Shown piece by piece: positions 4,227 through 58,329 of a stretch of DNA of 64,000 nucleotides. The first letter of the stretch is position 1. Each line of letters starts with the position of its first letter. Position numbers and translations under genes: made by a program. The notes beneath the pieces are model-generated. The model was given only the letters and a program-made list of their open reading frames with translations, had not been told where the DNA came from and searched no databases. The DNA is from an uncultured Bacteroidota bacterium (lineage in GTDB: Bacteria > Bacteroidota > Bacteroidia > AKYH767-A > 2013-40CM-41-45): contig CALMQM010000073.1 of NCBI GenBank assembly GCA_937871435.1, forward strand, positions 3,282 to 67,281. The letters run 5' to 3'.

Positions 4227-5101
4227 ATATCAATAAACTTAAAGGCACTGGAGTAGCATTAGTTACACCTTTTCACAAAGATGGAAGTATTGATTTTAAG
4301 GGATTCAGGAAATTGATTGACCGTTGTATCGACGGCAAAGTAGAATACCTTGTTCCGCTTGGTACAACAGGAGAATCTGCGACACTTTCCAATGATGAAA
4401 AAAGAGCCGTGCTGGATTTCGTGATTGAAATCACTGACAAACGTGTTCCTGTTGTATTAGGTTTAGGTGGAAACAATACTCAGGAAATTTTGAATACTCT
4501 GGAAGAATGGGATTTCACGGGTGTTGATGCGATACTTTCTGTTTCACCTTATTACAACAGACCTTCTCAACGAGGGATTTATCAGCATTACAAAATAATT
4601 GCAAATTCAAGTCCTGTTCCGGTCATTCTTTACAATGTACCTACTCGCACAGGCAGTAACATGGATGCGGATACCACTTTATCACTTGCGCATGATGTAA
4701 AAAACATTATCGGGATAAAAGAAGCTTCAGGAAACCTTGAAAAAGCTATGAAGATCATTCAACAAAAACCGAAGGACTTTCTGGTTATCAGCGGAGATGA
4801 TACACTTTCGTTGCCGCTAATTGCATGTGGTGCTGATGGAGTAATTTCTGTGATTGCCAATGTATATTCAAAAGATTTTTCTGAGATGGTCAGAATGGGA
4901 TTGGAAGGAAATTTTGATAAAGCAAGAAAATTGCATTACAAACTGTTAGATATTACCCATGCCATTTATGTGGACGGAAATCCATCCGGAGTGAAAGGTT
5001 TATTATCTGTTTTGAATATTTGTTCAGAGCATGTGCGATTACCACTGATGAGTGTTGGGAAATCTACCACAAACAAATTTGAAACTCTCCTCAAAGGATA
5101 G
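4223..5101 (+). CDS. dapA: 4-hydroxy-tetrahydrodipicolinate synthase
   Basis: 292 aa. Carries the DapA/NAL-family motifs GTTGESATLS and the lysine-containing active-site region (YNVPTRTG). Confidence 0.9.
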   Translation: MNINKLKGTGVALVTPFHKDGSIDFKGFRKLIDRCIDGKVEYLVPLGTTGESATLSNDEKRAVLDFVIEITDKRVPVVLGLGGNNTQEILNTLEEWDFTGVDAILSVSPYYNRPSQRGIYQHYKIIANSSPVPVILYNVPTRTGSNMDADTTLSLAHDVKNIIGIKEASGNLEKAMKIIQQKPKDFLVISGDDTLSLPLIACGADGVISVIANVYSKDFSEMVRMGLEGNFDKARKLHYKLLDITHAIYVDGNPSGVKGLLSVLNICSEHVRLPLMSVGKSTTNKFETLLKG

Positions 5102-5169
5102 TGTTTTTGAAAATCCGGAAACAATTTTGACAGATTCTTGTTGTTTATGCAATCCTGAATAGAATATCA

Positions 5170-7548
5170 ATGAATTACCGGATTGCATTTTTGAATTTAC
5201 TTTTTCTGACCCTGAGTTTTTCATATGCTTCTGCTCAAACCGGAAGCATCAGGGGAGTAGTGGTTGATAAGATTAATAACGAAGCCATTCCGTTTACACC
5301 TGTAATTATTATGGGAACTTCCACCGGAGCTACCACCGGAGAAGATGGGGCATTTGAAATCAAAGGCATAAAACCCGGAGTATATAATATATCCGTTTCA
5401 GCTCTTGGTTACAAGAAATTCACTTTGTTTGATCTTGAAGTTAAAAATACCCGCGTAACACAAATAAAAATTGAGTTGGAACAGGAGTCCAGGGTTTTAA
5501 ATGAGATTGATATCAAGCCGGAGGGATTTGTGAAACCCGAAGAAGCTCCGGTATCATTGAATACTATCGGTGAAGTGGAGATCAAAAGAAATCCGGGTGC
5601 GAACAGAGATATCTCCAAAGCTCTGCAATCTCTCCCGGGTGTTGCGGCAACCGCGAGTTTTCGAAATGATCTGATCATTCGTGGTGGTTCATCTAATGAA
5701 AACCGTTTTTATCTGGATGGAATTGAAGTTCCTAACATCAATCATTTTTCTACTCAGGGAGCCACCGGAGGTCCTGTTGGAATGATCAATGTTGATTTTA
5801 TCAGGGAAGTAGATTTTTATTCAGGTTCATTTCCCGCAGCAAAAGGCAACGCACTCAGTTCCATTCTGGATTTTAAATTAAAAGACGGATATGACAAAAA
5901 CGTTGTCTATTCATTTACACTCGGAGCATCTGATCTGGCCGCTACTGTTGAAGGTCCGCTTTCACCCAAAACAAGTTTTATCGCTTCCTGGAGAAGAAGC
6001 TATCTGCAGTTTTTATTCAAAGCTCTTGGATTGCCATTTCTTCCTAACTATGATGATTTTCTCCTGAAAACAAAGATCAAAATTAATGGCAAGAATGAAA
6101 TTACCATTCTGGGTTTGGGTGCCATCGATAAATTCAAGCTCAATCTTGATCAGAAAGAAACAAAATTTCAGCAGTACCTCCTTGGAAATTTACCTGTGAA
6201 CACCCAGTGGAATTATACAGGGGGATTGGTGTACAAACATTATGGAAAAAACGGATATACAACCGTTGCCTTAAGCAGAAATGCATTGAATAACGAAGCT
6301 GTAAAATACAGAAATAACGATGCCTCTGATCCTTCTAACCTCATTCTTGATTATCGTTCAACAGAAGAAGAAAATAAACTAAGAGTGGAGCATACAAACA
6401 GATTCAGTGGCTTTAAACTGACTTATGGAATTGGTGGTGAACTGGCTCGTTATAGCAATTCTACTTTCAATCGTTTGCCATTTGTAGGTACGATAAAGTA
6501 TGCTTCGCAACTTGATCTGATTAAATATACCGCCTTTGCACAGCTGAGCAAGGATTTTTTTAATGATAAACTTTCTTTGTCTTTGGGATTAAGAGGAGAT
6601 GGCAGCGATTTCAATAAAGGTATGCGGAATCCACTGCAACAATTATCTCCAAGATTTTCTGCTTCCTATGCAATCACACAAAAGTTCAGATTGAATGCGA
6701 ACATTGGCAGGTATTACCAGCTTCCGTCTTATACAATTCTCGGATACAGAAATACAAACTCTGAATTGGTAAATAAACAGGTGTCTTATATTCGCTGTGA
6801 TCATCTGGTCGGAGGTGTGGAATACAGCACTCCCGGTTTATTACGCGTCACCGTGGAAGGCTTTGTGAAAAATTATTCTTCCTATCCTTTCGATCTGCGA
6901 GATTCAATCAGTATTGCCAATCAGGGAAGCGATTTTGGAGTGGTTGGAACAGTACCTGTAAGTTCAGAAAATCAGGGACGTTCTTATGGTGCGGAATTAT
7001 TGCTGCAGCAAAAAATGAACAGGAATTTTTATGGAATCCTGGCATATACATTTGTACACAGTGAATTTCAGGATTATAATGGTAAGTACATTGCTTCGAG
7101 CTGGGATTTCAGACATATTATTAGTCTCACCGTCGGGAAGTACTTTAAAAGGAACTGGGAACTTGGAGGAAGATTCAGATTCAACAGCGGTAGTCCGTAT
7201 ACTCCTTACAATGTTTCTGCATCCATGGAGAAATCAAATTTTGATATTACAGGACAGGGAATTCTGGATAAGCAAAGTCTGAATTCACTCCGGACCAAAG
7301 CATTTCATCAATTGGATGTCCGGGTCGATAAAAAATACTTTTTCAAAAAATGGAGCCTCAATCTTTACATGGATATCCAGAATATTTACAACAACAAAAC
7401 AATGCTTGCTCCTTATTTGAGTGTACAGCGTGATAACGATGGAAACCCTTTGACCAATCCGAATGCAAGCAATGAATATCTCCCGGATTTTATCCCGAAT
7501 GAATCCGGTTCAGTGATTCCTACAATCGGTTTTGTAGTGGAATTTTAA
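5170..7548 (+). CDS. TonB-dependent receptor with N-terminal carboxypeptidase-regulatory-like domain
   Basis: 792 aa. Signal peptide, CarboxypepD_reg-like beta-sandwich (GSIRGVVVDKINNEAIPFTPVII), a plug region (SKALQSLPGVAA...RGG) and a long beta-barrel ending in an aromatic residue (VVEF). Confidence 0.8.
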   Translation: MNYRIAFLNLLFLTLSFSYASAQTGSIRGVVVDKINNEAIPFTPVIIMGTSTGATTGEDGAFEIKGIKPGVYNISVSALGYKKFTLFDLEVKNTRVTQIKIELEQESRVLNEIDIKPEGFVKPEEAPVSLNTIGEVEIKRNPGANRDISKALQSLPGVAATASFRNDLIIRGGSSNENRFYLDGIEVPNINHFSTQGATGGPVGMINVDFIREVDFYSGSFPAAKGNALSSILDFKLKDGYDKNVVYSFTLGASDLAATVEGPLSPKTSFIASWRRSYLQFLFKALGLPFLPNYDDFLLKTKIKINGKNEITILGLGAIDKFKLNLDQKETKFQQYLLGNLPVNTQWNYTGGLVYKHYGKNGYTTVALSRNALNNEAVKYRNNDASDPSNLILDYRSTEEENKLRVEHTNRFSGFKLTYGIGGELARYSNSTFNRLPFVGTIKYASQLDLIKYTAFAQLSKDFFNDKLSLSLGLRGDGSDFNKGMRNPLQQLSPRFSASYAITQKFRLNANIGRYYQLPSYTILGYRNTNSELVNKQVSYIRCDHLVGGVEYSTPGLLRVTVEGFVKNYSSYPFDLRDSISIANQGSDFGVVGTVPVSSENQGRSYGAELLLQQKMNRNFYGILAYTFVHSEFQDYNGKYIASSWDFRHIISLTVGKYFKRNWELGGRFRFNSGSPYTPYNVSASMEKSNFDITGQGILDKQSLNSLRTKAFHQLDVRVDKKYFFKKWSLNLYMDIQNIYNNKTMLAPYLSVQRDNDGNPLTNPNASNEYLPDFIPNESGSVIPTIGFVVEF

Positions 7549-8429
7549 TACGTGACATACGGTATTAACCCACGGATTCCCATGTCTACAACTGTATCTG
7601 AGGGAGGCTCATAAATATTGTTTCCGTTTGCGTCGGTCCATTCGAAACTTTTATTGTTCGACAAAGAAACAGTCACTACGATATCGTGAGTTTCGCTGCC
7701 TGTGATGGTAAGAGGTCCATTGAGCTGACCTGTAACAACACAAGATCCTGCCGGTACAGGAGAGGTAGCATTAATCGGATTAGGAACTGTTGTGCCGGGA
7801 GCCTGTCCCTGAAACACTGTATCCGTTCCGAAAATATTCATTTCAAAAGCCCAATAGCCCTGTAGCCTATTCCCATTCACAATGACAGGATGATTCTTAG
7901 GCTGAAAAGTGGTGATATAAGAATTGAAGCCAATGAATGAAGCCAATGTGCCAGTGAAATCGAACCCGCTTGCACGAAGTGGCACATCGTAATTTTGATA
8001 GGCGAGAGACACTCTCAGCCAACGGTATGTTCCGGGATTGACATCTGAGATTGGAACACTGTAAAATGTTTCACCTTCATGGACAACTCTGCTTTGATTG
8101 AAGTCAATTGCAAGACTTCCACCGGCATTCGTTTCCGGAGCACGGTATAGAATTTCACCGGCGCCAAGAAGAGTCAGACTATCCTGAGCAAGTTCTATAT
8201 AATGCGAACTTATTGAATTGAAATGCGGAGACAATGCTCCATGTCCAGCGGGAACAGTTGTTGGTTGACCGAAGTTATTTAACCTTACCTGGGTGCTGTC
8301 AAAAGCGAATTTGAAAATCAATTGCGGACTTGCCGGAGCAGGGGTGTTTTCTTCTTCAGTTTTATCCTTACATGCGGAAAGAATGAGTGCTGAAACAAAA
8401 AATACGGTGGCAATTTTTACTAAGTTCAT
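7545..8429 (-). CDS. Hypothetical lipoprotein
   Basis: 294 aa. Lipoprotein signal peptide MNLVKIATVFFVSALILSAC. Its 3' end overlaps the TBDR by 4 nt in convergent orientation. Confidence 0.6.
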   Translation of the reverse strand: MNLVKIATVFFVSALILSACKDKTEEENTPAPASPQLIFKFAFDSTQVRLNNFGQPTTVPAGHGALSPHFNSISSHYIELAQDSLTLLGAGEILYRAPETNAGGSLAIDFNQSRVVHEGETFYSVPISDVNPGTYRWLRVSLAYQNYDVPLRASGFDFTGTLASFIGFNSYITTFQPKNHPVIVNGNRLQGYWAFEMNIFGTDTVFQGQAPGTTVPNPINATSPVPAGSCVVTGQLNGPLTITGSETHDIVVTVSLSNNKSFEWTDANGNNIYEPPSDTVVDMGIRGLIPYVTY

Positions 8430-8511
8430 GGGGCGAATTTTATTGAATCAATATTTGTTTGATTGTGGTTCGTACATTTATGCGCCTTCGAATCTACTAA
8501 ATTTATCTGTT

Positions 8512-8967
8512 ATGAATTTCATTCCTGTAGCGACAGTAGTGAGTCCACGAATTATTCCTGATGACGATTATTGGGGAAATATACTTTCCGAAATCGTTTT
8601 GGAACCACATATCCCGGATGATTCTCTTCTCGGGATTGAATCTCTTTCGCATCTGGAAATTATCTTTCACTTTAACGCATTACCTGAAGATAAAATTGTT
8701 GTAGGAGCGCGCCATCCGAGAGATAACAAAAACTGGCCACTCACCGGAATATTTGCACAACGTGGTGCCGGCAGACCGAATAGACTCGGTGCAACAATGG
8801 TTGAGTTGATTGAAGTCAGGAAAAGAAGCATCGTCGTAAAAGGGCTGGATGCTATTCATGGAACACCTGTAATAGATATTAAACCGGTTTGGAGGGAATT
8901 TTTTCCATCAACTGAAATAAGGCAGCCCGAATGGAGCCACGAACTGATGACTCATTATTGGCATTGA
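8512..8967 (+). CDS. tRNA (adenine37-N6)-methyltransferase TrmO/TsaA family protein
   Basis: The ORF track begins at a CTG at 8293 inside the neighbouring gene. The first ATG (8512) gives a 151-aa protein with TsaA/YaeB motifs (RPNRLGATMVELIEV...LDAIHGTPVIDIKPV). Confidence 0.7.
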   Translation: MNFIPVATVVSPRIIPDDDYWGNILSEIVLEPHIPDDSLLGIESLSHLEIIFHFNALPEDKIVVGARHPRDNKNWPLTGIFAQRGAGRPNRLGATMVELIEVRKRSIVVKGLDAIHGTPVIDIKPVWREFFPSTEIRQPEWSHELMTHYWH

Positions 8968-9061
8968 CAAAGGGAAAAATGGCAGATCTGCTTCCCGAAT
9001 TCACTTTGTCGACAGTTTTTATTCAGCCAATCTTTTAACTTTACATCTCAAATTTATCGCA

Positions 9062-10165
9062 ATGAAAAAAATCTACCTGTTTGTTTTAGGTACACTATTC
9101 AGTTTAGTTTCTACTGCACAAATTACGATCAGCTCGGCTGATTTACCCAGCGCCCTAGACACCTTTCGGGTGAGCAATGGTCAGGCTTTTACCGGTATGG
9201 ATATCAATCTGACCGGAGCCAATACTACATGGGATTTTTCTCAGCTCACTTCAACAGGGCAAACTGTGGATTCTTTTCTGACCGTTGGAAGTACAGCAAC
9301 TGTCTATTCCATTGTTTTCTTTGATAATATTATTAATCCAAATCGTGCGAATCAGGCGGTTCGTGGACCTTCGTTTAATTTTGGAACAACTATCAGTGTT
9401 TCGGATGTGTACAATTTTTATTACAATTCCTCTTCATTCTATAAGCAAGTAGGATTCGGCGCGGCGGTAAATTCAGTTACTATTCCTGTGTTATATTCGC
9501 CGCATGATATAGTGTATAATCTTCCCATGCATTTTGGTGATGTAGATTCGTCAGACAGTGGTTATGAACTGGATCTGACTTCTACAATTGGTATTTACTA
9601 CAAAGTCAATCGCACCCGCCACAATACAGTAGACGGATGGGGAAGTCTCACTACACCATTCGGAACATTTGATGCATTAAGAGTGCTTACTACCATAGGG
9701 GAAAGAGACAGTATCTATATTGATTCACTGGGATTTGGATTTAATACACCACTGGTTACTACAAAAGAATACAAATGGCTTGGTCTGGGACAGGGAATTC
9801 CCTTGTTGCAAATTAACACTACGAATAATGGAGTGGTTACACAGATCACTTACAAAGACTCTTTGCCTTCCATCATCAATACAGTTACACCAATTGTGAA
9901 AAATCCTATCTCTTCAATTTTCCCAAATCCCTGTGCCGGAAAAGCGGTTCTTCAATATGAATTGGAGCAATCTTCCTATGTCAGTATTGATGTATTGAAT
10001 GCAACCGGTGAATTGGTGCAACACGTATCAGAACAAAAAATGGAAGCAGGACATCATCTGTCATTATTGAATAATGAAAACGGTCAGTTAAGTCCGGGAG
10101 TGTATTCTGTTCGACTGATGATAGATGGAAAAGCAAGTCAGAAACAGCTCATAGTAGCTGATTGA
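9062..10165 (+). CDS. T9SS C-terminal sorting domain-containing secreted protein (function unknown)
   Basis: 367 aa. Signal peptide. C-terminal ~80 aa (FPNPCAGKAVLQYELEQSSYVSIDVLNATGELV...VYSVRLMIDGK) fits the Por-secretion tail pattern. Confidence 0.75.
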   Translation: MKKIYLFVLGTLFSLVSTAQITISSADLPSALDTFRVSNGQAFTGMDINLTGANTTWDFSQLTSTGQTVDSFLTVGSTATVYSIVFFDNIINPNRANQAVRGPSFNFGTTISVSDVYNFYYNSSSFYKQVGFGAAVNSVTIPVLYSPHDIVYNLPMHFGDVDSSDSGYELDLTSTIGIYYKVNRTRHNTVDGWGSLTTPFGTFDALRVLTTIGERDSIYIDSLGFGFNTPLVTTKEYKWLGLGQGIPLLQINTTNNGVVTQITYKDSLPSIINTVTPIVKNPISSIFPNPCAGKAVLQYELEQSSYVSIDVLNATGELVQHVSEQKMEAGHHLSLLNNENGQLSPGVYSVRLMIDGKASQKQLIVAD

Positions 10166-10170
10166 TTCGA

Positions 10171-10662
10171 TTACTTCAGTCCTTTTCTTAACACCACCAT
10201 TTTAATGGCAGTTGCTGCCGCTTCAATTCCTTTGTTTCCATGCTTCCCCCCGGCTCTTGCCAATGCCTGATCCATTGTATTGGGTGTCAGCAATCCGAAA
10301 ATAAACGGGATGGAAAATTTTATACCGAGATTCATCAATCCATCTGATACAGCACTACATATAAAATCAAAATGACGGGTTTCGCCCTGGATCACACAAC
10401 CCAGGCAAATTACTGCATCCGGCTTTTCTGACTCTGCGATCCATTGAGCACCCAGAGGTAACTCATAGCTTCCGGGGACATTAATTCGCAAGATATCTGC
10501 AGCCGAGCAACCTTGTTGAATCAGACAATCTCTTGCACCTGTAAATAAGGCTTCAGTAATTTCAGTGTTCCATTCTGATACAACGATGGCAATGCGCAAC
10601 CCTGCAGCAGAAGGCAGAGGAGTGGAACCGAAATCGTTGAGGTTTTTGTGGAGTGTAGACAT
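10171..10662 (-). CDS. ribH: 6,7-dimethyl-8-ribityllumazine synthase
   Basis: 163 aa. RIAIVVSEWNTEITEALFTGA and the downstream lumazine-synthase fold motifs. Confidence 0.9.
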   Translation of the reverse strand: MSTLHKNLNDFGSTPLPSAAGLRIAIVVSEWNTEITEALFTGARDCLIQQGCSAADILRINVPGSYELPLGAQWIAESEKPDAVICLGCVIQGETRHFDFICSAVSDGLMNLGIKFSIPFIFGLLTPNTMDQALARAGGKHGNKGIEAAATAIKMVVLRKGLK

Positions 10663-10708
10663 GGCCGTAAAAAAGAAAACCGAACTTTAAGTCCGGTTTT
10701 TTATCATT

Positions 10709-11389
10709 TTAATTTCCTGCCAGTGTGTTGGCCCGTGAAATGTATTTATCAATCTGAGCTCCTTCAGGTGAAGAAGGATAATCTTTCTTGAGACGTTCGT
10801 ATACTTCAGTAGCTTCTTTATAATTTCCTTTGCTTTCCAAAGCTGCAGCCCATTTCATCAGCATAATCGGAGTATCGAAATTATTCGGATTCTCTTTTGA
10901 TGCCTTTTCATAATAAGTGATTGCTTCATCCGTATTCTTTAATTCCATGTAAGCATCACCGATAGCTCCCAATACGATAGCACCCGTTACTTCGTCTTTC
11001 GCATCATAACTCTTCAACATGTCAATCGCCTTATCGTATTCTTTTTGTTTGATGTAGGCCATTCCCAGATAATACCGGGCAAGGTTTCCGGAAGGACTAA
11101 CGGAGTATTCATTCACGATATCTTCCAGTCCCATATGGTTGCCATCACCGTTGATTGCAAGTTTCAGGGAATCATTTTTAAAATTCTCTTCAGCACGGAA
11201 CAACTCTTTTTGTGCATCTGTTTCTTTTCCGGCTACATAGACTTTTTGGTAGAATAAATATCCACCTACAGCCAGAACAAGTGCTCCGATAATGATTCCT
11301 AGGCTTTTCTTGTTTTGATCAATGAAATGCTCCGTTTTACCCAATGCTTCGGTAACGATAAAGTCCTGATCCTGTGGTTTTTCTGCCAT
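10709..11389 (-). CDS. Tetratricopeptide-repeat membrane protein
   Basis: 226 aa. One transmembrane helix (LGIIIGALVLAVGGYLF) followed by TPR-like repeats (YYLGMAYIKQKEYDKAIDML...). Co-oriented just downstream of ribH, 46-bp gap. Confidence 0.7.
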   Translation of the reverse strand: MAEKPQDQDFIVTEALGKTEHFIDQNKKSLGIIIGALVLAVGGYLFYQKVYVAGKETDAQKELFRAEENFKNDSLKLAINGDGNHMGLEDIVNEYSVSPSGNLARYYLGMAYIKQKEYDKAIDMLKSYDAKDEVTGAIVLGAIGDAYMELKNTDEAITYYEKASKENPNNFDTPIMLMKWAAALESKGNYKEATEVYERLKKDYPSSPEGAQIDKYISRANTLAGN

Positions 11390-11536
11390 TTTTAGCGTAT
11401 TAATTTTTAAAAACAGGCTGCAAAAATAGTCTTTTTTCCCATATAATCAACCCATTTCAGCCTGAGTTTCAAAGGCTTTTTCAACATGGAAAGCCTAAGA
11501 AGAAAGATGTTATTTTTGCGCTCTAAAATAAAAAAC

Positions 11537-12001
11537 ATGAAAGTTCTATCTCTGATTTGTTCGGGTTTAATTGTGCTTGCATCCTGTTCTTCAGGTGGTT
11601 TAAAAGATGGAGGAGGCAAACAGTTTGGGTCTGCATTCGATACCAGCTCAGCTGTGAGCATGTCTGCTCTTGCATCCCAAATGGGTGATAAATCCAGTAT
11701 GGATTGCACCGTTAAAGGAACAATTTCCGAAGTCTGTCAGTCCGAGGGTTGCTGGTTTACTGTACAAAATGAAGGAGCGGAACCGGTAACAGTCAGAATG
11801 CGTGATCATGGATTTACTGTTCCAAAAAACATTGCTGGCAAAGTTGTATTCTTTAAAGGCACTGCGAAAACTGATACAACAAGTGTCGAGACCTTGCGTG
11901 ATTACGCGAAAGATGCCGATAAAAGTGAGGCTGAAATAGAAGCAATCCAGAGCCCGAAAGTAGAATTGGTTGTGGAAGCAGACGGAGTATTGTTGCAATG
12001 A
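11537..12001 (+). CDS. Lipoprotein, DUF4920-like
   Basis: The ORF track starts at 11486. The ATG at 11537 gives a lipoprotein signal MKVLSLICSGLIVLASCSS. Cys-containing core EVCQSEGCWF. Its stop overlaps the next gene's ATG (ATGA). Confidence 0.6.
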   Translation: MKVLSLICSGLIVLASCSSGGLKDGGGKQFGSAFDTSSAVSMSALASQMGDKSSMDCTVKGTISEVCQSEGCWFTVQNEGAEPVTVRMRDHGFTVPKNIAGKVVFFKGTAKTDTTSVETLRDYAKDADKSEAEIEAIQSPKVELVVEADGVLLQ

Positions 12002-12534
12002 TCAAAAAACAGATCATTTATTTCTTCCTTCTGTTGGTGTCACATCTGCCTGCTTTGAAATGTACCGCTCAGAGTGATGTGAGTGGATATCCTGTGCCGG
12101 TGATTGGTACAACTGCGTTCAATATTCAGGGAATTGATTCTTCAGGAAATAAGCGTGACTTATTTTCATTGAAAGAAAATACAATCTTCCTTTTCTTTTA
12201 TGAGACTTCATGTCATTTGTGTGAAGCTGTGTTGCCTGACCTCATTCAAAATTATGAACGTTGGAAAGCTTCAGGAATTGAGATTTATTCCGTTGCGATA
12301 AGCAATGATCATGATATATGGAAAGGGTTTTTAAGAGAGCACCCAACTCCATGGATAAATGTGATGGATACTGTGAATAAGGATACGATTGTATCCACCT
12401 TTAAAATTAATGTAAGCCCAACCATTTATGCATTAGACAAGAACAAACGAATTGCTTCTTCCAGAATGGTTCGCGCGGAAATGATTGAAGAATGGTTGAA
12501 GGAAAATTATAAAAGTACACCACAGCAAAAATGA
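11998..12534 (+). CDS. TlpA-like thiol-disulfide oxidoreductase (thioredoxin fold)
   Basis: 178 aa. Signal peptide, then a CxxC motif (YETSCHLCEA) in thioredoxin-like context. Start and stop overlap the flanking genes. Confidence 0.7.
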   Translation: MIKKQIIYFFLLLVSHLPALKCTAQSDVSGYPVPVIGTTAFNIQGIDSSGNKRDLFSLKENTIFLFFYETSCHLCEAVLPDLIQNYERWKASGIEIYSVAISNDHDIWKGFLREHPTPWINVMDTVNKDTIVSTFKINVSPTIYALDKNKRIASSRMVRAEMIEEWLKENYKSTPQQK

Positions 12535-45417: not shown

Positions 45418-45606
45418 AGAGATAGGTGATTTTCCGCAAAGATAAGAGGAAATTGCTTCTACACCCAATTTCAGGGGTTTCTGTTGATAAGTTCATAGGC
45501 ATGAATCCTGCATCCGTTGGACTATTCTCGGAAAATATTTCAGTTTGAGCTGTTTATTATTGCCTTTTTCTATATTTACCACAACATCATCACAACCAGA
45601 TTCAGC

Positions 45607-47436
45607 ATGAAGAAACTCCTTACTTTCCTTGCATTATTTCCGTCATTGCTTTGGGCTCAGACCTTTAGCAATTCAACCTGGACGCAAATTCCAAATACCA
45701 ATACGGATATTTTTATCCCGATTCAGGTTAGCGGATTGCCAACAAACATCAACGCATCCTTTGGGATTGCTGCGGTTTGTGTACAGATTACGCATCAGTT
45801 TTCTGCAGATTTGCAGGTCAGACTGCAATCTCCTGACGGCAAACAAGTAGTTCTTGTGGATACCAAAGGCGGTAATGGCAATGGATATCCAAATACCTGT
45901 TTCACCGAAAATGCAACAGGTGGATGGATTCAATTGGCTGCGCCACCTTTCAATGGTTCTTATTTTCCACAGGAATCAATTAACATTTTCAACGATAATT
46001 CTGACCCCAACGGAACCTGGAATCTCGTGTTAAGAGATGTATTTACTCCTGCCGATACAGGTTCTTTTCATTCGATCAACATCACGTTTACGATGAATCC
46101 TCCATTGGATCCGACACAAAGCGGTAGTGGTTGCAGCACGGCAAATCCTTCCGCCTGTCAGTGTCCTGATGGTTTGTCAACTGATTGTGATTTGTTACCA
46201 GATATGACAGCTTCAGCTATGTGTATTGCACAGGAACATGTGGAATATCCCGGCAATATTACCCTGAGTAACGCTACTCCAAACATAGGCTGGGGACCAT
46301 TGGAAATTCATGGTTCTAATTCCTGCTACTGTGATTCAGTTCCTGTTCCTTGTACAACATCCATTTGTCCGAACGGTGATTATCCAAAACAAATGATCAC
46401 ACAGCGGATTTATCACCGTGATGGTAATAACATGACGTTTTACGATCGTCCTGCAGGTACGATGACATATCACCCTTCACACGGACATATCCATGTCGAC
46501 AACTGGGCTGATTTTTCTTTGCGTCGTGCAACTTCGGATCCCGATGCGCGCAACTGGCCAAAAATCGGTCAAGGCAACAAGCAAAGTTTTTGTCTGGTAA
46601 ATCTTGGTGATTGTGATTCTGATTTTGGCTACTGCGTGGATTCTGCAGGAAATCCTTTGAACAAATCAAACATTGCCAATTCAGATTTTGGCACAGTTAC
46701 CGGATGTTCGCTTGATCAGGGTATTTATGTTGGTAATCTGGATATCTATAGCTCCGGTCTCAATGGTATGGGGATTATCCTTCCATCAATGACATGCAAC
46801 GGTGATTACTACATTGTTTCCATTACAGATCCGGAAAATAATATGTTGGAAACAAATGACAACAATAACTGGGTTACTGTTCCTATCACTCTTACACAAC
46901 AATCTGCCGGATCATTCCCGGCTGAAGGGTATTCTTATACAGTAAGCAATACTACGGTAAACTTTCTTGCCACAGCTATTGGCGCAGATTCATTGGTGTG
47001 GCATTGGGGCGATGGTTCACCAGCTGAGACAACTATTAACACAGGAATGGTTCATGATTTCCCGGGCATTGGTACATACATTGTACGTTTGTATGCATAC
47101 AACCAATGCGGACCAACCGTAACAATAGATACTGTTACCATCATGTCTACAGTAGGAATATCTTCACTCGAACCGGTAGTTTCTTTCAAAGCTTATCCAA
47201 ATCCGACAAAAGGGATTTTCAACCTCACATATTCTCTCGTAAATTCCACTCATGTTTCGATGGAATTATGTGATGCACTGGGAAAATCCATCGCTGAGCT
47301 TTCTTCAGCAGATCAGGTGGCTGGAAAATACACTGTTCAAGTGGATCCGGCAGCTTACAATCTGCATGCAGGAATTTATTTTGTGAAATTGAATTCCGGA
47401 AACAGAAATCATGTGGTTAGGATGATCGTGATGTAA
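45607..47436 (+). CDS. T9SS-secreted multidomain protein: P-domain + lysyl-oxidase-like catalytic domain + PKD + T9SS sorting domain
   Basis: Signal peptide from the ATG at 45607. N-terminal proprotein-convertase P-domain-like region (LQVRLQSPDGKQVVLVD...NGTWNLVLRD). A Cys-rich core with YHPSHGHIHVDNW, GNKQSFCLVNLGDCDSDFGYC and GCSLDQGIYVGNLDIY...GDYYIVSITDPENNMLETNDNNNWV aligns with the human LOX WHSCHQHYHS / HKASFCLEDTSCDYGY / GCYDTYGADIDC...GNYILKVSVNP...NNVV segments. Then a PKD domain (WHWGDGSP) and a Por-secretion tail. Confidence 0.75.
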   Translation: MKKLLTFLALFPSLLWAQTFSNSTWTQIPNTNTDIFIPIQVSGLPTNINASFGIAAVCVQITHQFSADLQVRLQSPDGKQVVLVDTKGGNGNGYPNTCFTENATGGWIQLAAPPFNGSYFPQESINIFNDNSDPNGTWNLVLRDVFTPADTGSFHSINITFTMNPPLDPTQSGSGCSTANPSACQCPDGLSTDCDLLPDMTASAMCIAQEHVEYPGNITLSNATPNIGWGPLEIHGSNSCYCDSVPVPCTTSICPNGDYPKQMITQRIYHRDGNNMTFYDRPAGTMTYHPSHGHIHVDNWADFSLRRATSDPDARNWPKIGQGNKQSFCLVNLGDCDSDFGYCVDSAGNPLNKSNIANSDFGTVTGCSLDQGIYVGNLDIYSSGLNGMGIILPSMTCNGDYYIVSITDPENNMLETNDNNNWVTVPITLTQQSAGSFPAEGYSYTVSNTTVNFLATAIGADSLVWHWGDGSPAETTINTGMVHDFPGIGTYIVRLYAYNQCGPTVTIDTVTIMSTVGISSLEPVVSFKAYPNPTKGIFNLTYSLVNSTHVSMELCDALGKSIAELSSADQVAGKYTVQVDPAAYNLHAGIYFVKLNSGNRNHVVRMIVM

Positions 47437-47457
47437 AACAAATTTGTTAGTAAGAGA

Positions 47458-47490
47458 AGAGCTCCGGAGATTCCGGGGCTCTTTTTTTTG
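47458..47490 (+). terminator. Rho-independent terminator after the LOX-like gene
   Basis: AGAGCTCCGG pairs with CCGGGGCTCT in a 10-bp stem (one G-U pair), followed by TTTTTTTT. Confidence 0.65.
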
Positions 47491-47507: not shown

Positions 47508-48899
47508 ATGAAGAAATACACGTCGGTATTTATCCATTTCTCTTTCCTTTGCATCATTTTGCTGTTGAGCAATTCATCGTTGCGTGCGCAGGTTCATCCG
47601 GGATGGAAGCACACCATTAAAAATTCTCTCAATACCATCAACAAAGCATGCAGCTTTGAAATTGATGGAATGAAAAATTGTTTTGTGCTTGGGACAACTT
47701 CAGTTCCGGATTCTGCGAAAGATATTTTACTGATAAAATATACCCCGACGGGTGCAGAAGAATGGCGCCGGATCTATGACAATCCTGATCACGGCGATGA
47801 TATTCCAATTGCAATGAATCTGGATGCACAAGGCAATGTATTAATCACAGGACTAAGCAAAGACAAATCCGGCAATGCTGACATCCTGGTATTGAAATAC
47901 TCAAGTGATGGTATTCCTGTAGTGGATATGCGGTTCGATGGACCAGCACATTCATTTGATACACCCGGTGCAATCACCAGCGACAGGTTCAATAACATTG
48001 TGGTTACAGGTGCAGAGACTTCCAGAGATTCAGGACTGAATATGGTGGTATATCGGATTCATCCGGATGGGGGATTGGCATGGAAAAGAAATTATTCTTC
48101 ACTTACCATGGATATCGGCAATGCAATCCTGACGGATGACTCCTGCAATGTGTATATCACCGGGAATTGCAATACTGCTCCTCATTCTTCGGATATTCTT
48201 ATTCAGAAATATGATAGTAGTGGAAAAGTTAAGTGGACAGAAATTTACAATGGTGTGTTCGCCGAGAATGATGCAGCATCCCTGATGAAGATGGATGATT
48301 CCACACACATTTATGTCAGCGGTTTTGTGAATCATACCAGCGACAGATCGGATGTTCCTCTTCTGAAATTGAACCGCAACGGAGAAATGCTGCGTGAAAA
48401 ATTTTATAATGGAGGAATCAGTGATTGTTATGCAACTAATTTGACTATTAATAAAAGCGGAGCGTTTCTGACCATATTCAGAACGGATTACAGTACCGGT
48501 ACTAATTCAAGTATGGTTTTGTATTATGATAAAGCCGGAATTGAAAAGAAAAAAATTGTCGCGCCAACTGATGTGATTTTTCAAAATTTTATTGAGTCCG
48601 GAACAACTCCACTCATTCTTGGAAACAAACTCACACATCCTGAAAGTACACTCATGCCTTATATTGCCGCTGTAGACACAGGTTCAACCATTCGCTGGGA
48701 TTTTGCAGATTCGACCATTTTCGGTATGGCGCATCTGGTAAAAGTGGGTATGTCGGGTGACAGAATTTATTTTCTCGGAGATGATGCAGGTGATGCAACA
48801 GGCAGTATTGAAATCATGACTTATACCTTGGTTGCGGATAAAGACAGAAGTAAAAAAGTACCATTAAATAAATCGAAAAGTGGCGTTTCAAAAAATTAA
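47508..48899 (+). CDS. Secreted SBBP-type beta-propeller repeat protein
   Basis: 463 aa. Signal peptide. Reiterated D-x-x-GN-(V/I)-Y-(I/V)-TG units (DAQGNVLITGLS; NNIVVTGAE; CNVYITGNC; THIYVSGFV). Confidence 0.55.
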   Translation: MKKYTSVFIHFSFLCIILLLSNSSLRAQVHPGWKHTIKNSLNTINKACSFEIDGMKNCFVLGTTSVPDSAKDILLIKYTPTGAEEWRRIYDNPDHGDDIPIAMNLDAQGNVLITGLSKDKSGNADILVLKYSSDGIPVVDMRFDGPAHSFDTPGAITSDRFNNIVVTGAETSRDSGLNMVVYRIHPDGGLAWKRNYSSLTMDIGNAILTDDSCNVYITGNCNTAPHSSDILIQKYDSSGKVKWTEIYNGVFAENDAASLMKMDDSTHIYVSGFVNHTSDRSDVPLLKLNRNGEMLREKFYNGGISDCYATNLTINKSGAFLTIFRTDYSTGTNSSMVLYYDKAGIEKKKIVAPTDVIFQNFIESGTTPLILGNKLTHPESTLMPYIAAVDTGSTIRWDFADSTIFGMAHLVKVGMSGDRIYFLGDDAGDATGSIEIMTYTLVADKDRSKKVPLNKSKSGVSKN

Positions 48900-50286
48900 C
48901 CAGCATCACCTGCATGAATTAGCAAGATTGGTAGGTGATTCCTTTGTGTATACTAATCAGGAAATTCTTGCTTCCAATGCACACGATTATACAGAAGACC
49001 TGCGTTTCTATCCCGAAGTGGTAGTAAAACCATCTTCTGCCGCAGAAATTTCTGCAATACTTCAGTTTTGTAATAAAGAAAATATTCCCGCTACTCCCCG
49101 TGGCGCCGGTACCGGTTTGAGTGGCGGAGCATTGCCTGTTCATGGCGGAATTGTTATTTCAACAGAACGATTAAACAAGATTATTCAAATCGATGAAAGA
49201 AATCTTCAGGCTACGGTTGAGCCCGGAGTAATCAATCAGGTCTTTCAGGATGCAGTGATGGAAAAGAATTTGTTTTATCCACCTGATCCTGCAAGTCGTG
49301 GAAGTTGTTTCCTCGGTGGCAATCTCGCTGAATGTGCCGGTGGACCTAAAGCCGTTAAGTATGGTGTAACCAAAGATTATATCCTGAATTGCGAAGTCGT
49401 TCTGCCCACCGGAGAAATTATCTGGACAGGTGCGAATGTTCTGAAAAATTCAACCGGATACAATCTCACTCAACTGATCATCGGAAGTGAAGGGACATTG
49501 GGCATCATCACACGAATTGTCGTCCGCCTGATTCCTCTTCCTACTGAAAATTTACTTTTGCTCGTTCCTTTTTTCAGTGCAGAAAAAGCCTGTGAAGCTG
49601 TAAGCGCGATTTTCAGATCCGGCGTTACTCCTTCCGCTCTTGAATTTATGGAACGTGATTGTATTGAATACGTAATGAAATTTGTAGATGTAAAAATTCC
49701 TTTGAAGGAGGGAATACAGGCGCATCTCATAGTGGAAGTCGATGGGAACGACAAGGATGTGTTGTTCAAAGAATGTGAAAAGATCTCTGAAATCCTTTAT
49801 CAGTACGAATGCGATGAAATCCTTTTCGCTGATTCAACTCAACAAAAAGCAGACCTGTGGCGAGCTCGCCGTTCTGCAGGTGAAGCTGTAAAATCACATT
49901 CCATTTACAAGGAAGAAGATACTGTTGTTCCACGAGCCGAATTACCCGCGTTGTTGAAAGGTGTGAAAGCGATCGGAACAAAATATGGATTCAGAAGTAT
50001 TTGTTACGGACATGCAGGTGATGGAAATCTCCATGTGAACATCATCAAAGAAGAAATGAGTGATGAAGCCTGGGCGAATGAAGTGCCCAAGGGAATCCGT
50101 GAGATCTTTCAGTTGTGCGTTCAGCTCGGTGGAACCATTTCCGGTGAACACGGTATCGGTTATGTCCAGAAAAATTATATGAACATTCCTTTTTCATCTA
50201 CTCAAATGAATCTGATGAAAGGAATAAAAAATTTATTTGATCCAAAAGGAATCCTGAATCCGGGAAAAATATTTCCGGAAGTATAA
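48880..50286 (+). CDS. FAD-binding oxidoreductase (GlcD / D-lactate dehydrogenase-like)
   Basis: 468 aa. GTG start overlaps the upstream gene. FAD-binding PCMH domain (PEVVVKPSSAAEI...ATPRGAGTGLSGGALP) and a C-terminal FAD-linked oxidase domain. Confidence 0.8.
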   Translation: MAFQKINQHHLHELARLVGDSFVYTNQEILASNAHDYTEDLRFYPEVVVKPSSAAEISAILQFCNKENIPATPRGAGTGLSGGALPVHGGIVISTERLNKIIQIDERNLQATVEPGVINQVFQDAVMEKNLFYPPDPASRGSCFLGGNLAECAGGPKAVKYGVTKDYILNCEVVLPTGEIIWTGANVLKNSTGYNLTQLIIGSEGTLGIITRIVVRLIPLPTENLLLLVPFFSAEKACEAVSAIFRSGVTPSALEFMERDCIEYVMKFVDVKIPLKEGIQAHLIVEVDGNDKDVLFKECEKISEILYQYECDEILFADSTQQKADLWRARRSAGEAVKSHSIYKEEDTVVPRAELPALLKGVKAIGTKYGFRSICYGHAGDGNLHVNIIKEEMSDEAWANEVPKGIREIFQLCVQLGGTISGEHGIGYVQKNYMNIPFSSTQMNLMKGIKNLFDPKGILNPGKIFPEV

Positions 50287-50314
50287 CATTATCGGTTCGC
50301 ATTGTAGAAAATTC

Positions 50315-51121
50315 ATGAAATCCAAAGTTGCAGTCATCACCGGAGCCTCTTCCGGTATTGGAAAATCACTCGCATTGTGTTTTGCAAATGCGGGTTACGC
50401 CGTGGTTATTTCCGGAAGAAATCAGCAGCGGATGAAGGAAGTACAGGATCAGATTGAAAAGGAGGGAGGAAAAGCAATCTGTGTGATGGCGGATGTTTCA
50501 AAGGCAGCAGATTGTAAAAGATTGATTGATGAAAGTATTGCCGCATTTGGTCAACTCGATGTTTTGATCAACAACGCAGGCATGTCGATGCGAGCATTGT
50601 TTGAAAAAACCGAATTGAGTGTGATCCGACAGTTAATGGACATCAATTTCTGGGGAACTGTGTATTGTTCCAAATTTGCTTTGCCTTACCTGCTACAATC
50701 AAAAGGAAGTATTGTAGGAATTTCTTCCATCGCCGGGAAGAAAGGATTGCCCGGAAGAACTGGTTATTCCGCTTCAAAATTTGCCATGGAAGGATTTCTG
50801 GAAACATTGCGAACGGAGAATTTAAAGAAAGGATTGCACGTTTTAATTGCCTGTCCAGGATTTACTGCATCAAATATTCGTCAGTCTGCATTATCCGCTG
50901 ACGGGAGTTCACAGGGAGAATCGCCAAGAGATGAGAAAAAGATGATGCAGCCGGAGGAAGTTGCAGGTAGAATTTTACAGGCTGTAGTAAAACGAAAAAG
51001 AGATCTGGTAATGAGCAGCGATGGAAAGCTGACTGTATTCCTGAATAAATTTTTTCCTTCTCTGATGGATAAAATTGTGTACAATCACATGGCTAAAGAA
51101 CCGGATTCTCCATTTTCCTGA
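50315..51121 (+). CDS. SDR family oxidoreductase
   Basis: 268 aa. TGASSGIGKSLA Rossmann motif and the YSASK active-site motif. Confidence 0.85.
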   Translation: MKSKVAVITGASSGIGKSLALCFANAGYAVVISGRNQQRMKEVQDQIEKEGGKAICVMADVSKAADCKRLIDESIAAFGQLDVLINNAGMSMRALFEKTELSVIRQLMDINFWGTVYCSKFALPYLLQSKGSIVGISSIAGKKGLPGRTGYSASKFAMEGFLETLRTENLKKGLHVLIACPGFTASNIRQSALSADGSSQGESPRDEKKMMQPEEVAGRILQAVVKRKRDLVMSSDGKLTVFLNKFFPSLMDKIVYNHMAKEPDSPFS

Positions 51122-51511
51122 TTAGCCAACAACAATTCTTACTTTTCCCACGCCGATTAATTTATCCGTTTCATCGTAAACGTATACGATGTATTCACCG
51201 GCCTCATGAAAATTTATTTCCTTTTTAAACCAGGTATAATGAGGTTTCGGATTAGCTTGAATCGAACTGTGATAAATTTCTTTTTTCGTGTCTTCGTCCA
51301 TTTTGAAAAAGTCAATCTTCAGAGAATGGGAATTGATGACGTCAGACAATTGGATGAGCATCATTAAAGATCCACCGTTGTTTCCAATAATAAAATAAGA
51401 ACTTGCATGTACCGGCTTGCCTTCAGCCGAAACATCTTCACAAAACAAAACAGATTGTGCAGACCCGGTAAGACTAAGTAAAAGAAACAGAATCAGGATT
51501 CGGAATTTCAT
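51122..51511 (-). CDS. Small secreted hypothetical protein
   Basis: 129 aa with a signal peptide. Directly downstream of, and co-oriented with, the TBDR gene. Confidence 0.5.
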   Translation of the reverse strand: MKFRILILFLLLSLTGSAQSVLFCEDVSAEGKPVHASSYFIIGNNGGSLMMLIQLSDVINSHSLKIDFFKMDEDTKKEIYHSSIQANPKPHYTWFKKEINFHEAGEYIVYVYDETDKLIGVGKVRIVVG

Positions 51512-56673: not shown

Positions 56674-58329
56674 ATGCTAAAACGGCTTTCCTTTCTGATC
56701 ATGTTGTTGTTTGCAGGCCTCTCACAGGCGCAACACACAAAATATTTTATTCAGTTTACGGATAAACTGAATTCTCCGTACAACATCGGAACTCCATCTG
56801 ATTTTTTATCCCAAAAAGCAATCGATCGCAGGACAAGGCAGCATATTGCAGTTATAGACAATGATATTCCTGTTAATCCGAATTATGTAGCTGCAGTAGA
56901 AAATACCGGTGCGGTTATTTTTGCTAAATCAAAGTGGATGAATGGTGTTGTTGTGCAATGTGATTCAACACAACTTCAAAATATCCTCACATTGTCGTTT
57001 GTGCGTAATGCGAAGATGGTGAACCGGCAAGCGAACTCCGTCGGTGGGAAAAATAAATTTAAGACTTCCAATACAGCTCCACTTGCTGCAGGAAATTTAC
57101 TTCGCATCCAAAGTTATGATTATGGTAGTTCATTCAATCAGATTCATCTTATGAATGGAGAATACCTGCACAATGCCGGATTTAAAGGTGAAGGGATGAC
57201 CATTGCTGTACTGGACGGAGGATTTTATTCAGTTGATGTATTGACTCCATTTGACAGTATCAATGCAGCCGGACAAATCCTTGGAACCTGGGATTTTGTA
57301 GCGAATGATAATTCTGTTTACGAAGACATCACACATGGAATGTCTGTTCTTTCCTGTATCGCGGGGAATGTATCAGGACAACTGGTAGGGACAGCACCAC
57401 ATGCCAATTTCTGGTTACTTCGTTCAGAAGATGCTGCAACGGAAAATCTCATTGAAGAATACAATTGGGTGAGTGCTGCGGAATATGCAGACAGTGTAGG
57501 AGCAGATTTAATCTCCAGTTCACTTGGTTATTCAACCTTTGATGATTCGTTGATGGATCACACCTATGCAGATATGAATGGTGATGTTTGTCCGTCCAGC
57601 ATTGGAGCCGATATCGCAGCATCAAAAGGATTGTTGGTATTGGTAAGTGCAGGAAATTCCGGACAGAATCCCTGGCATTATATTTCAGCGCCTTCTGATG
57701 CTGATAGTGTTTTAAGTGTGGCTGCTGTGGATGAGTTTGGATACAAAGCAAATTTCAGCAGTTGGGGACCAGCATCTGATGGAGCAATTAAGCCAAATGT
57801 AGCGGCAAAAGGAAAAAATACTACCATATCAAATTTTGACGGAAGCATTGGTCAGGGTAATGGAACCAGCTTTGCCTGTCCGGTGCTTGCCGGTGCGGCA
57901 GCTTGTCTATGGCAGGCTCATCCATTAAAAACTAACATGGAAGTATTTCATGCAATTGAGGAAAGTGCGAATTATTATAACAATCCTGGTGATTCACTTG
58001 GTTATGGCATACCAAATTTTATGGTTGCAGATCTATTGCTTGGCGGAACTGTATTGAACCTGGATGCAGAAGATAATCTTTTAAGTGTGTTTCCGAATCC
58101 ATTTCAACAAAGTTTCGAAATCAGTTATTATTCATCTCTCACTCAAACTATTCAGTTGGAAGTCATCAATGAATTGGGACAGAACCTGATGAATTCTTCA
58201 GCAGAAGTAATAGGAGGTAAAGCAAACACGATTACTTTCCCTTCGCTTTCATCTCTTCAAAATGGAGTTTATTTTGTTCGTGTAGTCTCTAAATCAAAAT
58301 CGTTCCTTCGAAAAGTTGTAAAGATTTAA
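56674..58329 (+). CDS. S8 family (subtilisin-like) serine peptidase with T9SS sorting domain
   Basis: 551 aa. Catalytic D (TIAVLDGGF), H (HGMSVLSCIAG) and S (GTSFACPVLAGAAAC). C-terminal Por-secretion tail (LSVFPNPFQQSFEISYY...GVYFVRVVSKSKSF). Confidence 0.85.
   Translation: MLKRLSFLIMLLFAGLSQAQHTKYFIQFTDKLNSPYNIGTPSDFLSQKAIDRRTRQHIAVIDNDIPVNPNYVAAVENTGAVIFAKSKWMNGVVVQCDSTQLQNILTLSFVRNAKMVNRQANSVGGKNKFKTSNTAPLAAGNLLRIQSYDYGSSFNQIHLMNGEYLHNAGFKGEGMTIAVLDGGFYSVDVLTPFDSINAAGQILGTWDFVANDNSVYEDITHGMSVLSCIAGNVSGQLVGTAPHANFWLLRSEDAATENLIEEYNWVSAAEYADSVGADLISSSLGYSTFDDSLMDHTYADMNGDVCPSSIGADIAASKGLLVLVSAGNSGQNPWHYISAPSDADSVLSVAAVDEFGYKANFSSWGPASDGAIKPNVAAKGKNTTISNFDGSIGQGNGTSFACPVLAGAAACLWQAHPLKTNMEVFHAIEESANYYNNPGDSLGYGIPNFMVADLLLGGTVLNLDAEDNLLSVFPNPFQQSFEISYYSSLTQTIQLEVINELGQNLMNSSAEVIGGKANTITFPSLSSLQNGVYFVRVVSKSKSFLRKVVKI

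Follow-up and report, generated by a model that had tools for sequence, protein, structure and literature searches.

In a 64,000-nucleotide stretch of genome from an uncultured Bacteroidota bacterium (hereafter the window), the gene at positions 45607 to 47436 of the forward strand encodes a protein of the lysyl oxidase (LOX) family PF01186, whose core is a real and apparently catalytically intact relative of animal lysyl oxidase. Membership of the family is carried by the profile match, the histidine triad, the lysine/tyrosine pair and the predicted fold, and the catalytic domain is accompanied by a proprotein-convertase-type P-domain, a PKD domain and a C-terminal type IX secretion system (T9SS) sorting domain (CTD). 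This gene is an uncharacterised member of a known enzyme family, within a populous and essentially undescribed Bacteroidota subfamily marked for T9SS export.

In the list of open reading frames (ORFs), a forward-strand frame is open from 45517 as far as the stop codon, 47434-47436. The start is assigned to the ATG at 45607, since the N-termini of full-length homologues line up at the same methionine in the alignment, and the coordinates given in a preliminary description of this DNA therefore hold. The translation begins with MKKLLTFLALFPSLLWA followed by QTF, and a protein in the public collection (P0001) is 100% identical to the window protein. The features of the gene are the following (aa, amino acids).

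45607-47436 (+): complete gene for a 609-aa P-domain / LOX / PKD / T9SS-CTD protein, stop codon at 47434-47436
45607-45657 (+): predicted Sec signal peptide, aa 1-17, MKKLLTFLALFPSLLWA, with a hydrophobic N-terminus and a cleavage motif of A followed by Q, read by eye from the sequence
45661-46101 (+): proprotein-convertase-type P-domain, aa ~19-165, without an attached protease domain
46102-46185 (+): Cys-rich linker, aa 166-193, with C176, C184 and C186 invariant in the alignment
46186-46911 (+): lysyl-oxidase-like catalytic domain, aa ~194-435, the best-conserved region of the protein
46471-46494 (+): copper-site motif HPSHGHIH, with H292, H294 and H296 as predicted copper ligands and H289 as the fourth, "talon" histidine
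46573-46599 (+): GNKQSFCLV motif, from the translation
46579-46581 (+): Lys325, predicted lysine of the lysine tyrosylquinone (LTQ) cofactor, GNKQSFCL being aligned to GHKASFCL
46714-46749 (+): DQGIYVGNLDIY, from the translation
46747-46749 (+): Tyr381, predicted LTQ tyrosine, DQGIYVGNLDIY being aligned to DQGITMGCWDMY
46924-47145 (+): PKD domain, aa ~440-513
47194-47433 (+): type A T9SS C-terminal sorting domain, aa 530-609
47452-47488 (+): intrinsic-terminator-like hairpin of 17 pairs (7 G-C) followed by a T-run, found in a terminator scan and starting 16 nt past the stop codon

The four domains that the preliminary description had named, namely the P-domain, the LOX domain, the PKD domain and the T9SS tail, are real. 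Pfam P_proprotein (PF01483) matched residues 56-161 (E 6e-10), Por_Secre_tail (PF18962) matched residues 530-608 (E 2.5e-11), and Lysyl_oxidase (PF01186) matched residues 282-433 with an E value of 4.2e-4 and 20.4 bits, which is exactly its gathering score. The NCBIfam model of the type A T9SS sorting domain, TIGR04183, scored 40.4 bits against a cut-off of 23 (E 2e-10). When 37 relatives were scanned one by one, PF01186 matched 24 of them, with a best E value of 2.8e-8. Pfam PKD matches for the window protein were below threshold; the family profile matches the PKD domains of ColH collagenase (E 4e-13), and profiles and fold together place this region among PKD domains.

Plain sequence searches missed human LOXL2, and profile-profile and fold comparisons were therefore needed. 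The central-domain profile (A2) was set against three LOX targets in hhalign. With the catalytic domain of LOXL2, represented by an approximate sequence to which database LOXL2 entries are 82-95% identical, the probability was 87%; with 22 aligned animal LOX/LOXL sequences from the database (A3) it was 95%, with an E value of 3.5e-8 over 123 columns; and with an Acanthamoeba LOX, whose sequence was taken from the supplement of PMC4448552, it was 93.6%. One register is found in all three alignments, in which YHPSHGHIH faces WH(D/S)CH(R/Q)HYH, GNKQSFCL faces GHKASFCL and DQGIYVGNLDIY faces DQGITMGCWDMY. The motifs quoted in the preliminary description (HPSHGHIH, GNKQSFCLV and DQGIYVGNLDIY) are present where it had placed them, and the tyrosine that it had left unspecified is Y381, as LDIY pairs with WDMY/YDTY. 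The features that define the catalytic site, the histidine core with K320 and Y355 of human LOX (PMC4448552), correspond in the window protein to H292/H294/H296, K325 and Y381, and the combination of His triad, lysine and tyrosine is an accepted predictor of activity (PMC4448552).

The fold points in the same direction. An AlphaFold2 model built from 37 family sequences reached a mean predicted local distance difference test score (pLDDT) of 85.5, with lower confidence in the Cys-rich linker, and the structural comparison with LOXL2 that had been proposed gave a Foldseek probability of 1.00 for 5ze3 (human LOXL2). With a model of the central domain only, LOXL2 was the sole PDB entry with E <= 1e-3, and the next match had a probability of 0.06. 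The predicted model thus has the fold of the LOX catalytic domain. Two outcomes had been named in advance as fatal to the assignment, the absence of a PF01186 match and an alignment in which the catalytic residues fall off the LOX positions, and neither was observed.

Conservation was assessed in a close alignment of the window protein and 120 relatives (121 sequences, 43-100% identity) and in a wider one, in which the window protein was joined by 124 representatives of 50%-identity clusters with other architectures (125 sequences). In the close alignment, none of the 121 sequences lacks H292, H294, H296, K325 or Y381, and the same is true of W300, C329, C336, C343, C367, Q371, G372, D379, C397 and Y401. 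In the wider alignment, the His triad is kept in 121 of 125 sequences, the lysine in 124 and the tyrosine in 123. The talon histidine H289 (window 46471-46473) is kept by 106 of the 121 close sequences and by 114 of the 125 in the wider alignment. Near-invariant positions number 51 of 240 in the LOX domain, compared with 1 of 147 in the P-domain, 5 of 74 in the PKD domain and 5 of 80 in the CTD, and selection therefore centres on the oxidase core. This pattern favours a functional active site over a scaffold or pseudoenzyme.

An alternative in which the LOX-like domain is a pseudoenzyme, or a structural module of a surface adhesin whose P-domain and PKD domain do the binding, would be in keeping with the marginal Pfam score, the adhesin-like accessory domains and a disulfide pattern unlike that of LOXL2. 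It is set against five catalytic residues that are unchanged in all 121 close sequences and in 121 to 124 of 125 across other architectures, within the best-conserved part of the protein, and we regard it as improbable.

The comparison with the animal enzymes also marks the limits of the resemblance. Animal LOX and LOXL1-4 (human LOXL2, PDB 5ZE3) are ~21-28% identical to the window protein, a relationship that is visible only with profiles. The strict "copper talon" signature of the animal enzymes is WEWHSCHQHYHSMD (InterPro IPR019828, quoted in PMC4448552), whereas the window protein has MTYHPSHGHIHVDN, so that the four histidine positions alone match. The animal enzymes carry SRCR or propeptide regions, which the window protein lacks, having a P-domain and a PKD domain instead, and, unlike them, it is predicted to leave the cell through a bacterial T9SS. 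An animal-type LOX was rejected on the talon signature, the disulfide pattern and the missing SRCR/propeptide regions.

Among prokaryotes, Bacteroidetes were listed among the LOX-bearing phyla by Grau-Bove et al. in 2015, and all but three prokaryotic LOX were described as single-domain proteins (PMC4448552). The window protein shares with prokaryotic PF01186 members a signal peptide and the conserved His triad, lysine and tyrosine, and differs from the mostly single-domain proteins of that study in having four domains and a T9SS tag. Bacterial LOX are also said to be without the first talon histidine (PMC4448552), whereas the family of the window protein keeps it as H289. This subfamily seems to lie outside the data set of PMC4448552, because its invariant motifs QGIY, SFCL[IV]N, TPNIGWG and CDLLPD are absent from the sequence supplements of that paper; Bacteroidetes genus names were not found in those supplements either. 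No relevant paper was returned by literature searches that paired lysyl oxidase with T9SS, type IX secretion or Bacteroidota. The archaeal HTU-LOX, to which the window protein is likened here by published description, is an active amine oxidase that is sensitive to beta-aminopropionitrile (BAPN) and acts on lysine-containing polypeptides (PMC6452851). Its specificity is relaxed, extending to many small amines, aminoglycosides and polymyxin, and the authors suggest nitrogen scavenging (PMC6452851).

A possible functional analogy, on another fold, can be drawn to LodA and GoxA. These secreted lysine and glycine oxidases of marine bacteria use a quinone cofactor and release H2O2 outside the cell; their fold and their cofactor, cysteine tryptophylquinone (CTQ), are unrelated to LOX, and a partner flavoprotein is needed for cofactor biogenesis. 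No gene for a LodA/GoxA-type partner flavoprotein is found here, on which no dedicated test was made.

The protein has numerous relatives. A protein search at E <= 1e-3 returned 916 clusters at 90% identity; domain make-up was described for the best 120, each of which was listed with a subset of these four domain families, and most of which are ~600-615 aa long, a few being shorter or partial. With one genome scanned for each GTDB species, 184 stretches were found, and the best 80 of these are all from metagenome-assembled genomes (MAGs) of Bacteroidota or Bacteroidia. Closest to the window protein are relatives in an uncultured "Flavobacteriales" MAG and in a Bacteroidetes MAG from activated sludge (LOX-domain identity 86%); Candidatus Pollutiaquabacter aromativorans comes next, at 74%. 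An exhaustive hidden Markov model (HMM) search of 1.84 billion cluster representatives found 214 matches at E <= 1e-30 and 1124 at E <= 1e-10; the 3294 matches at E <= 1e-3 are an inflated count, because giant repeat proteins enter it through the CARDB-like C-terminal strands alone (query aa ~210-265). In such proteins (P0317, P0336, P0342, P0355 and others), 14-25 stretches match, all of them through the CARDB-like segment. In the window protein, the LOX domain's C-terminal strands (NGDYYIVSITDP...NNNW; window 46789-46878, aa 395-424) also match CARDB, which hints at a beta-strand motif common to LOX and CARDB.

The arrangement of the window protein, described earlier as unusual, is one arrangement within a modular family and not a singular curiosity; given the 916 clusters, the 184 GTDB stretches and a LOX domain found in many module orders, the earlier wording was too strong. 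Among 124 cluster representatives, LOX stands directly after the signal peptide in 82, with Ig_7, PKD, PKD_6, TIG or P-domains C-terminal to it, whereas the order P-LOX-PKD-CTD is found in just 20 and other layouts in 22. The wider family of T9SS LOX-domain proteins in Bacteroidota nevertheless shares with the window protein the same LOX domain, the catalytic residues, the type A tail and, frequently, P-domains. In nine examples scanned with Pfam, LOX was fused to Ig_7, PKD, PKD_6, TIG, GEVED, three CUB domains, or one to three P-domains on either side, and five of the nine have a T9SS tail. Two metagenome proteins (P0244 and P0246) carry three CUB domains ahead of LOX and P-domains behind it; CUB domains are known mostly from animal extracellular proteins, and P0244 lies on a 3.3-kb contig of the Joint Genome Institute (JGI) for which no taxon is given. 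In the permafrost/palsa Bacteroidetes MAG palsa_967 (PLYJ01), at least eight LOX-domain loci were found (L015, L016, L019, L023, L027, L045, L050 and L077), which points to an expansion of paralogues.

The signals for export lie at the two ends of the protein. Cleavage of the predicted Sec signal peptide would leave Gln18 as the new N-terminus, a residue present in 112 of 121 aligned sequences, and this glutamine matches the "Q-rule" that describes substrates of signal peptidase I in Bacteroidetes (PMC5837995). The signal peptide, read by eye, and the type A sorting domain are the two marks of a type A T9SS cargo, and the export proposed in the preliminary description is well in line with them. 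A second T9SS cargo, encoded at window 56674-58329 (+), is a Peptidase_S8 subtilase with a Por_Secre_tail and without a P-domain, of which the LOX protein, with a P-domain and no subtilase, is the mirror case. The presence of this second CTD-bearing cargo would be indirect support for T9SS machinery being encoded in the genome.

Taken together, we consider it fairly probable, largely by analogy with characterised family members, that the protein is an exported copper/LTQ amine oxidase of the LOX family, made from a monocistronic gene, which favours polymer-bound amines, chiefly the lysine side chains of proteins. The Sec signal peptide would direct it to the periplasm, where cleavage by signal peptidase I would expose Gln18 and the protein would fold, form disulfides through its 14 invariant cysteines and take up copper. 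Cu(II) would be bound by H292, H294 and H296, and copper and O2 would then turn Y381 into a quinone, whose cross-link with K325 would give LTQ autocatalytically. The type A CTD would route the protein to the type IX secretion system and be removed after export, the mature protein being either released or anchored at the surface. There it would convert R-CH2-NH2 to R-CHO with release of NH3 and H2O2, presumably on polymer-bound amines and chiefly on lysines of extracellular or surface proteins, whether of its own matrix or of foreign or detrital origin, and the allysine product may condense into cross-links. Polymer-bound amines are favoured because the catalytic domain regularly comes joined to binding modules of the beta-sandwich type (P-domain, PKD, Ig_7, CUB, TIG). 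The substrate assignment is the weakest step of this explanation.

Several observations weigh against this account. The PF01186 score of the window protein is exactly at threshold (20.4 bits), a phmmer search against PDB chains found nothing, LOXL2 included, the full-length family HMM reached LOXL2 among the PDB chains only at E 0.18, and the central-domain HMM did not find it there. The sequence alignment covers the C-terminal ~150 aa of the LOX domain only, its N-terminal half being assigned by fold similarity; just two of the disulfide cysteines of LOXL2 are aligned, C329 and C336; and an insertion of ~20 aa separates K325 and Y381 in comparison with animal LOX. The relatives are all from MAGs, as judged on the best 80 of the 184 stretches, and no T9SS machinery gene was found among the ORFs scanned in the annotated parts of the 64-kb window. 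Finally, the relaxed specificity of HTU-LOX means that protein lysine is not the sole plausible substrate.

This last point leads to the strongest alternative, in which the same enzyme, exported in the same way, would act on small amines in solution, for example polyamines, free lysine, amino sugars, peptides or antibiotics, and the benefit would be nitrogen scavenging through NH3, or H2O2 directed against competitors or prey, and not protein cross-linking. HTU-LOX, the one characterised prokaryotic LOX in the papers considered here, shows relaxed specificity (PMC6452851); in the 85 loci compared, no candidate substrate protein is consistently encoded beside the LOX gene; and the eight or more paralogues in a single MAG suggest diversification of substrates. 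The nearly constant fusion of LOX to binding modules and to surface or secretion tags, which is typical for insoluble or macromolecular substrates, is the argument on the other side. Action on small amines is a possibility that we judge rather unlikely, and the evidence does not firmly separate it from action on polymer-bound amines.

The genes around the LOX gene were considered next to this proposal of an exported amine oxidase. Downstream on the forward strand, the order is an SBBP-like gene, a gene for an FAD-linked (GlcD-like) oxidase and one for a short-chain dehydrogenase/reductase (SDR), as had been described, the SBBP match being weak. A functional link or co-expression with this region (47508-51121), which the preliminary description had proposed to check, finds no support. 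The terminator-like hairpin and its T-run stand directly after the stop codon, which suggests that the LOX gene is monocistronic, and the SBBP-like gene (47508-48899, +), whose 3' end overlaps by 20 nt with the GlcD-like gene starting at 48880, probably forms its own unit with the FAD-linked oxidase gene. In a comparison of 85 loci, the SBBP-like, GlcD-like and SDR neighbours were found only at the ~11 loci with the most similar LOX and were absent from more than 70 others. At those ~11 loci, a whole block of ten genes is collinear (CCG, YdjM, FKBP, DUF3127, LOX, SBBP-like, GlcD-like, SDR, a small ORF and a TonB-dependent receptor); these are unrelated housekeeping genes, and the shared order is lineage synteny. 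When all flanking ORFs were clustered, none recurred as a partner across the 85 loci; the most frequent, found at 19 of them, codes for a protein of 633 aa whose Pfam matches, to glutamine-amidotransferase (GATase) families, are faint.

It is therefore very improbable that the LOX gene is the first of an operon or pathway in which the SBBP-like protein, the FAD oxidase and the SDR take part, for instance by processing the aldehyde product. The common strand, the short gaps, the gene order kept in the ~11 related loci and the conserved Lys-rich C-terminal tail of the SBBP-like protein speak in its favour. Against it stand the hairpin, the lineage effect and the N-termini of the FAD oxidase and the SDR, in which no signal peptide is seen; these two proteins are probably cytoplasmic, while the LOX protein is predicted to be exported, and the operon was rejected. 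As to the tail itself, lysine makes up 24% of the last 25 aa of the SBBP-like protein, against 6.7% overall, and this basic character is kept in 10 of 10 syntenic orthologues; a Lys-rich tail beside a lysyl oxidase is suggestive, and the pairing is confined to the closest lineage.

The automatic JGI name "subtilisin-like proprotein convertase family protein", carried by many relatives and in keeping with the P-domain match, would make the protein a protease, a reading with next to no chance of being right and rejected (as kexin/furin, S8B), since Pfam finds no Peptidase_S8 domain, the P-domain begins at ~aa 19, right after the signal peptide, and the sole enzyme-like domain matches LOXL2. In furin/kexin convertases, the source of the P-domain model, the P-domain accompanies a subtilase; in the window protein, it is N-terminal, ahead of an oxidase. 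Other public names of relatives are "proprotein convertase P-domain-containing protein", "T9SS type A sorting domain-containing protein", "PKD domain-containing protein" and "hypothetical"; one (HKR06754.1) is already named "lysyl oxidase family protein" by NCBI. Most family members are thus misnamed or under-named in public records, by which the catalytic domain is hidden.

In the literature, the native role of prokaryotic lysyl oxidases is still called "enigmatic" or "cryptic" (PMC6452851). An intact LOX site in a protein that would be routed through the T9SS and that carries binding modules offers a concrete setting for extracellular amine oxidation or protein cross-linking in bacteria, with possible relevance to flocs, biofilms, predation and nitrogen scavenging in activated sludge and freshwater. 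The advance is an incremental one, as LOX in Bacteroidetes has been known since 2015, there is no sign of new chemistry or mechanism, and the hosts are all uncultured. A broader idea, which we put forward tentatively and think unlikely, is that uncultured environmental Bacteroidota possess a large modular toolkit of T9SS-exported lysyl oxidases, the window protein among them, whose P-domain, PKD, Ig, CUB and TIG modules would target the enzymes to particular extracellular proteins for covalent cross-linking or chemical marking. If true, this would be a bacterial counterpart of the cross-linking of the extracellular matrix in animals, and the talon histidine, otherwise reported only in animals and ichthyosporeans, could bear on a bacterial ancestry of eukaryotic LOX.

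With respect to the sequence context, GC content is ~0.40 throughout the window, with an even composition, and ordinary chromosomal genes of Bacteroidia are found in it, including LigA, ComEC, LptD, MgtE, SulP, an ABC-F protein and TonB-dependent receptors. A scan for sigma-70 promoters gave fewer sites than in shuffled sequence, with a model that is ill-suited to Bacteroidota promoters, and no promoter is claimed; TTTCTATATTTACC at 45566-45580 (+), ~30 nt upstream of the ATG, resembles TAnnTTTG, the -7 promoter element of Bacteroidetes. At window 51122-51511 (-), a 129-aa ORF with a signal peptide and no Pfam match is kept in the syntenic block beside the TonB-dependent receptor gene. At one further locus (L085, ~4300-12200), a LOX gene whose product is only 43% identical to that of the window occupies the same slot between YdjM and GlcD-like/SDR, without the FKBP, DUF3127 and SBBP-like genes, and may be either an orthologue that has diverged or another gene that has taken over this site.

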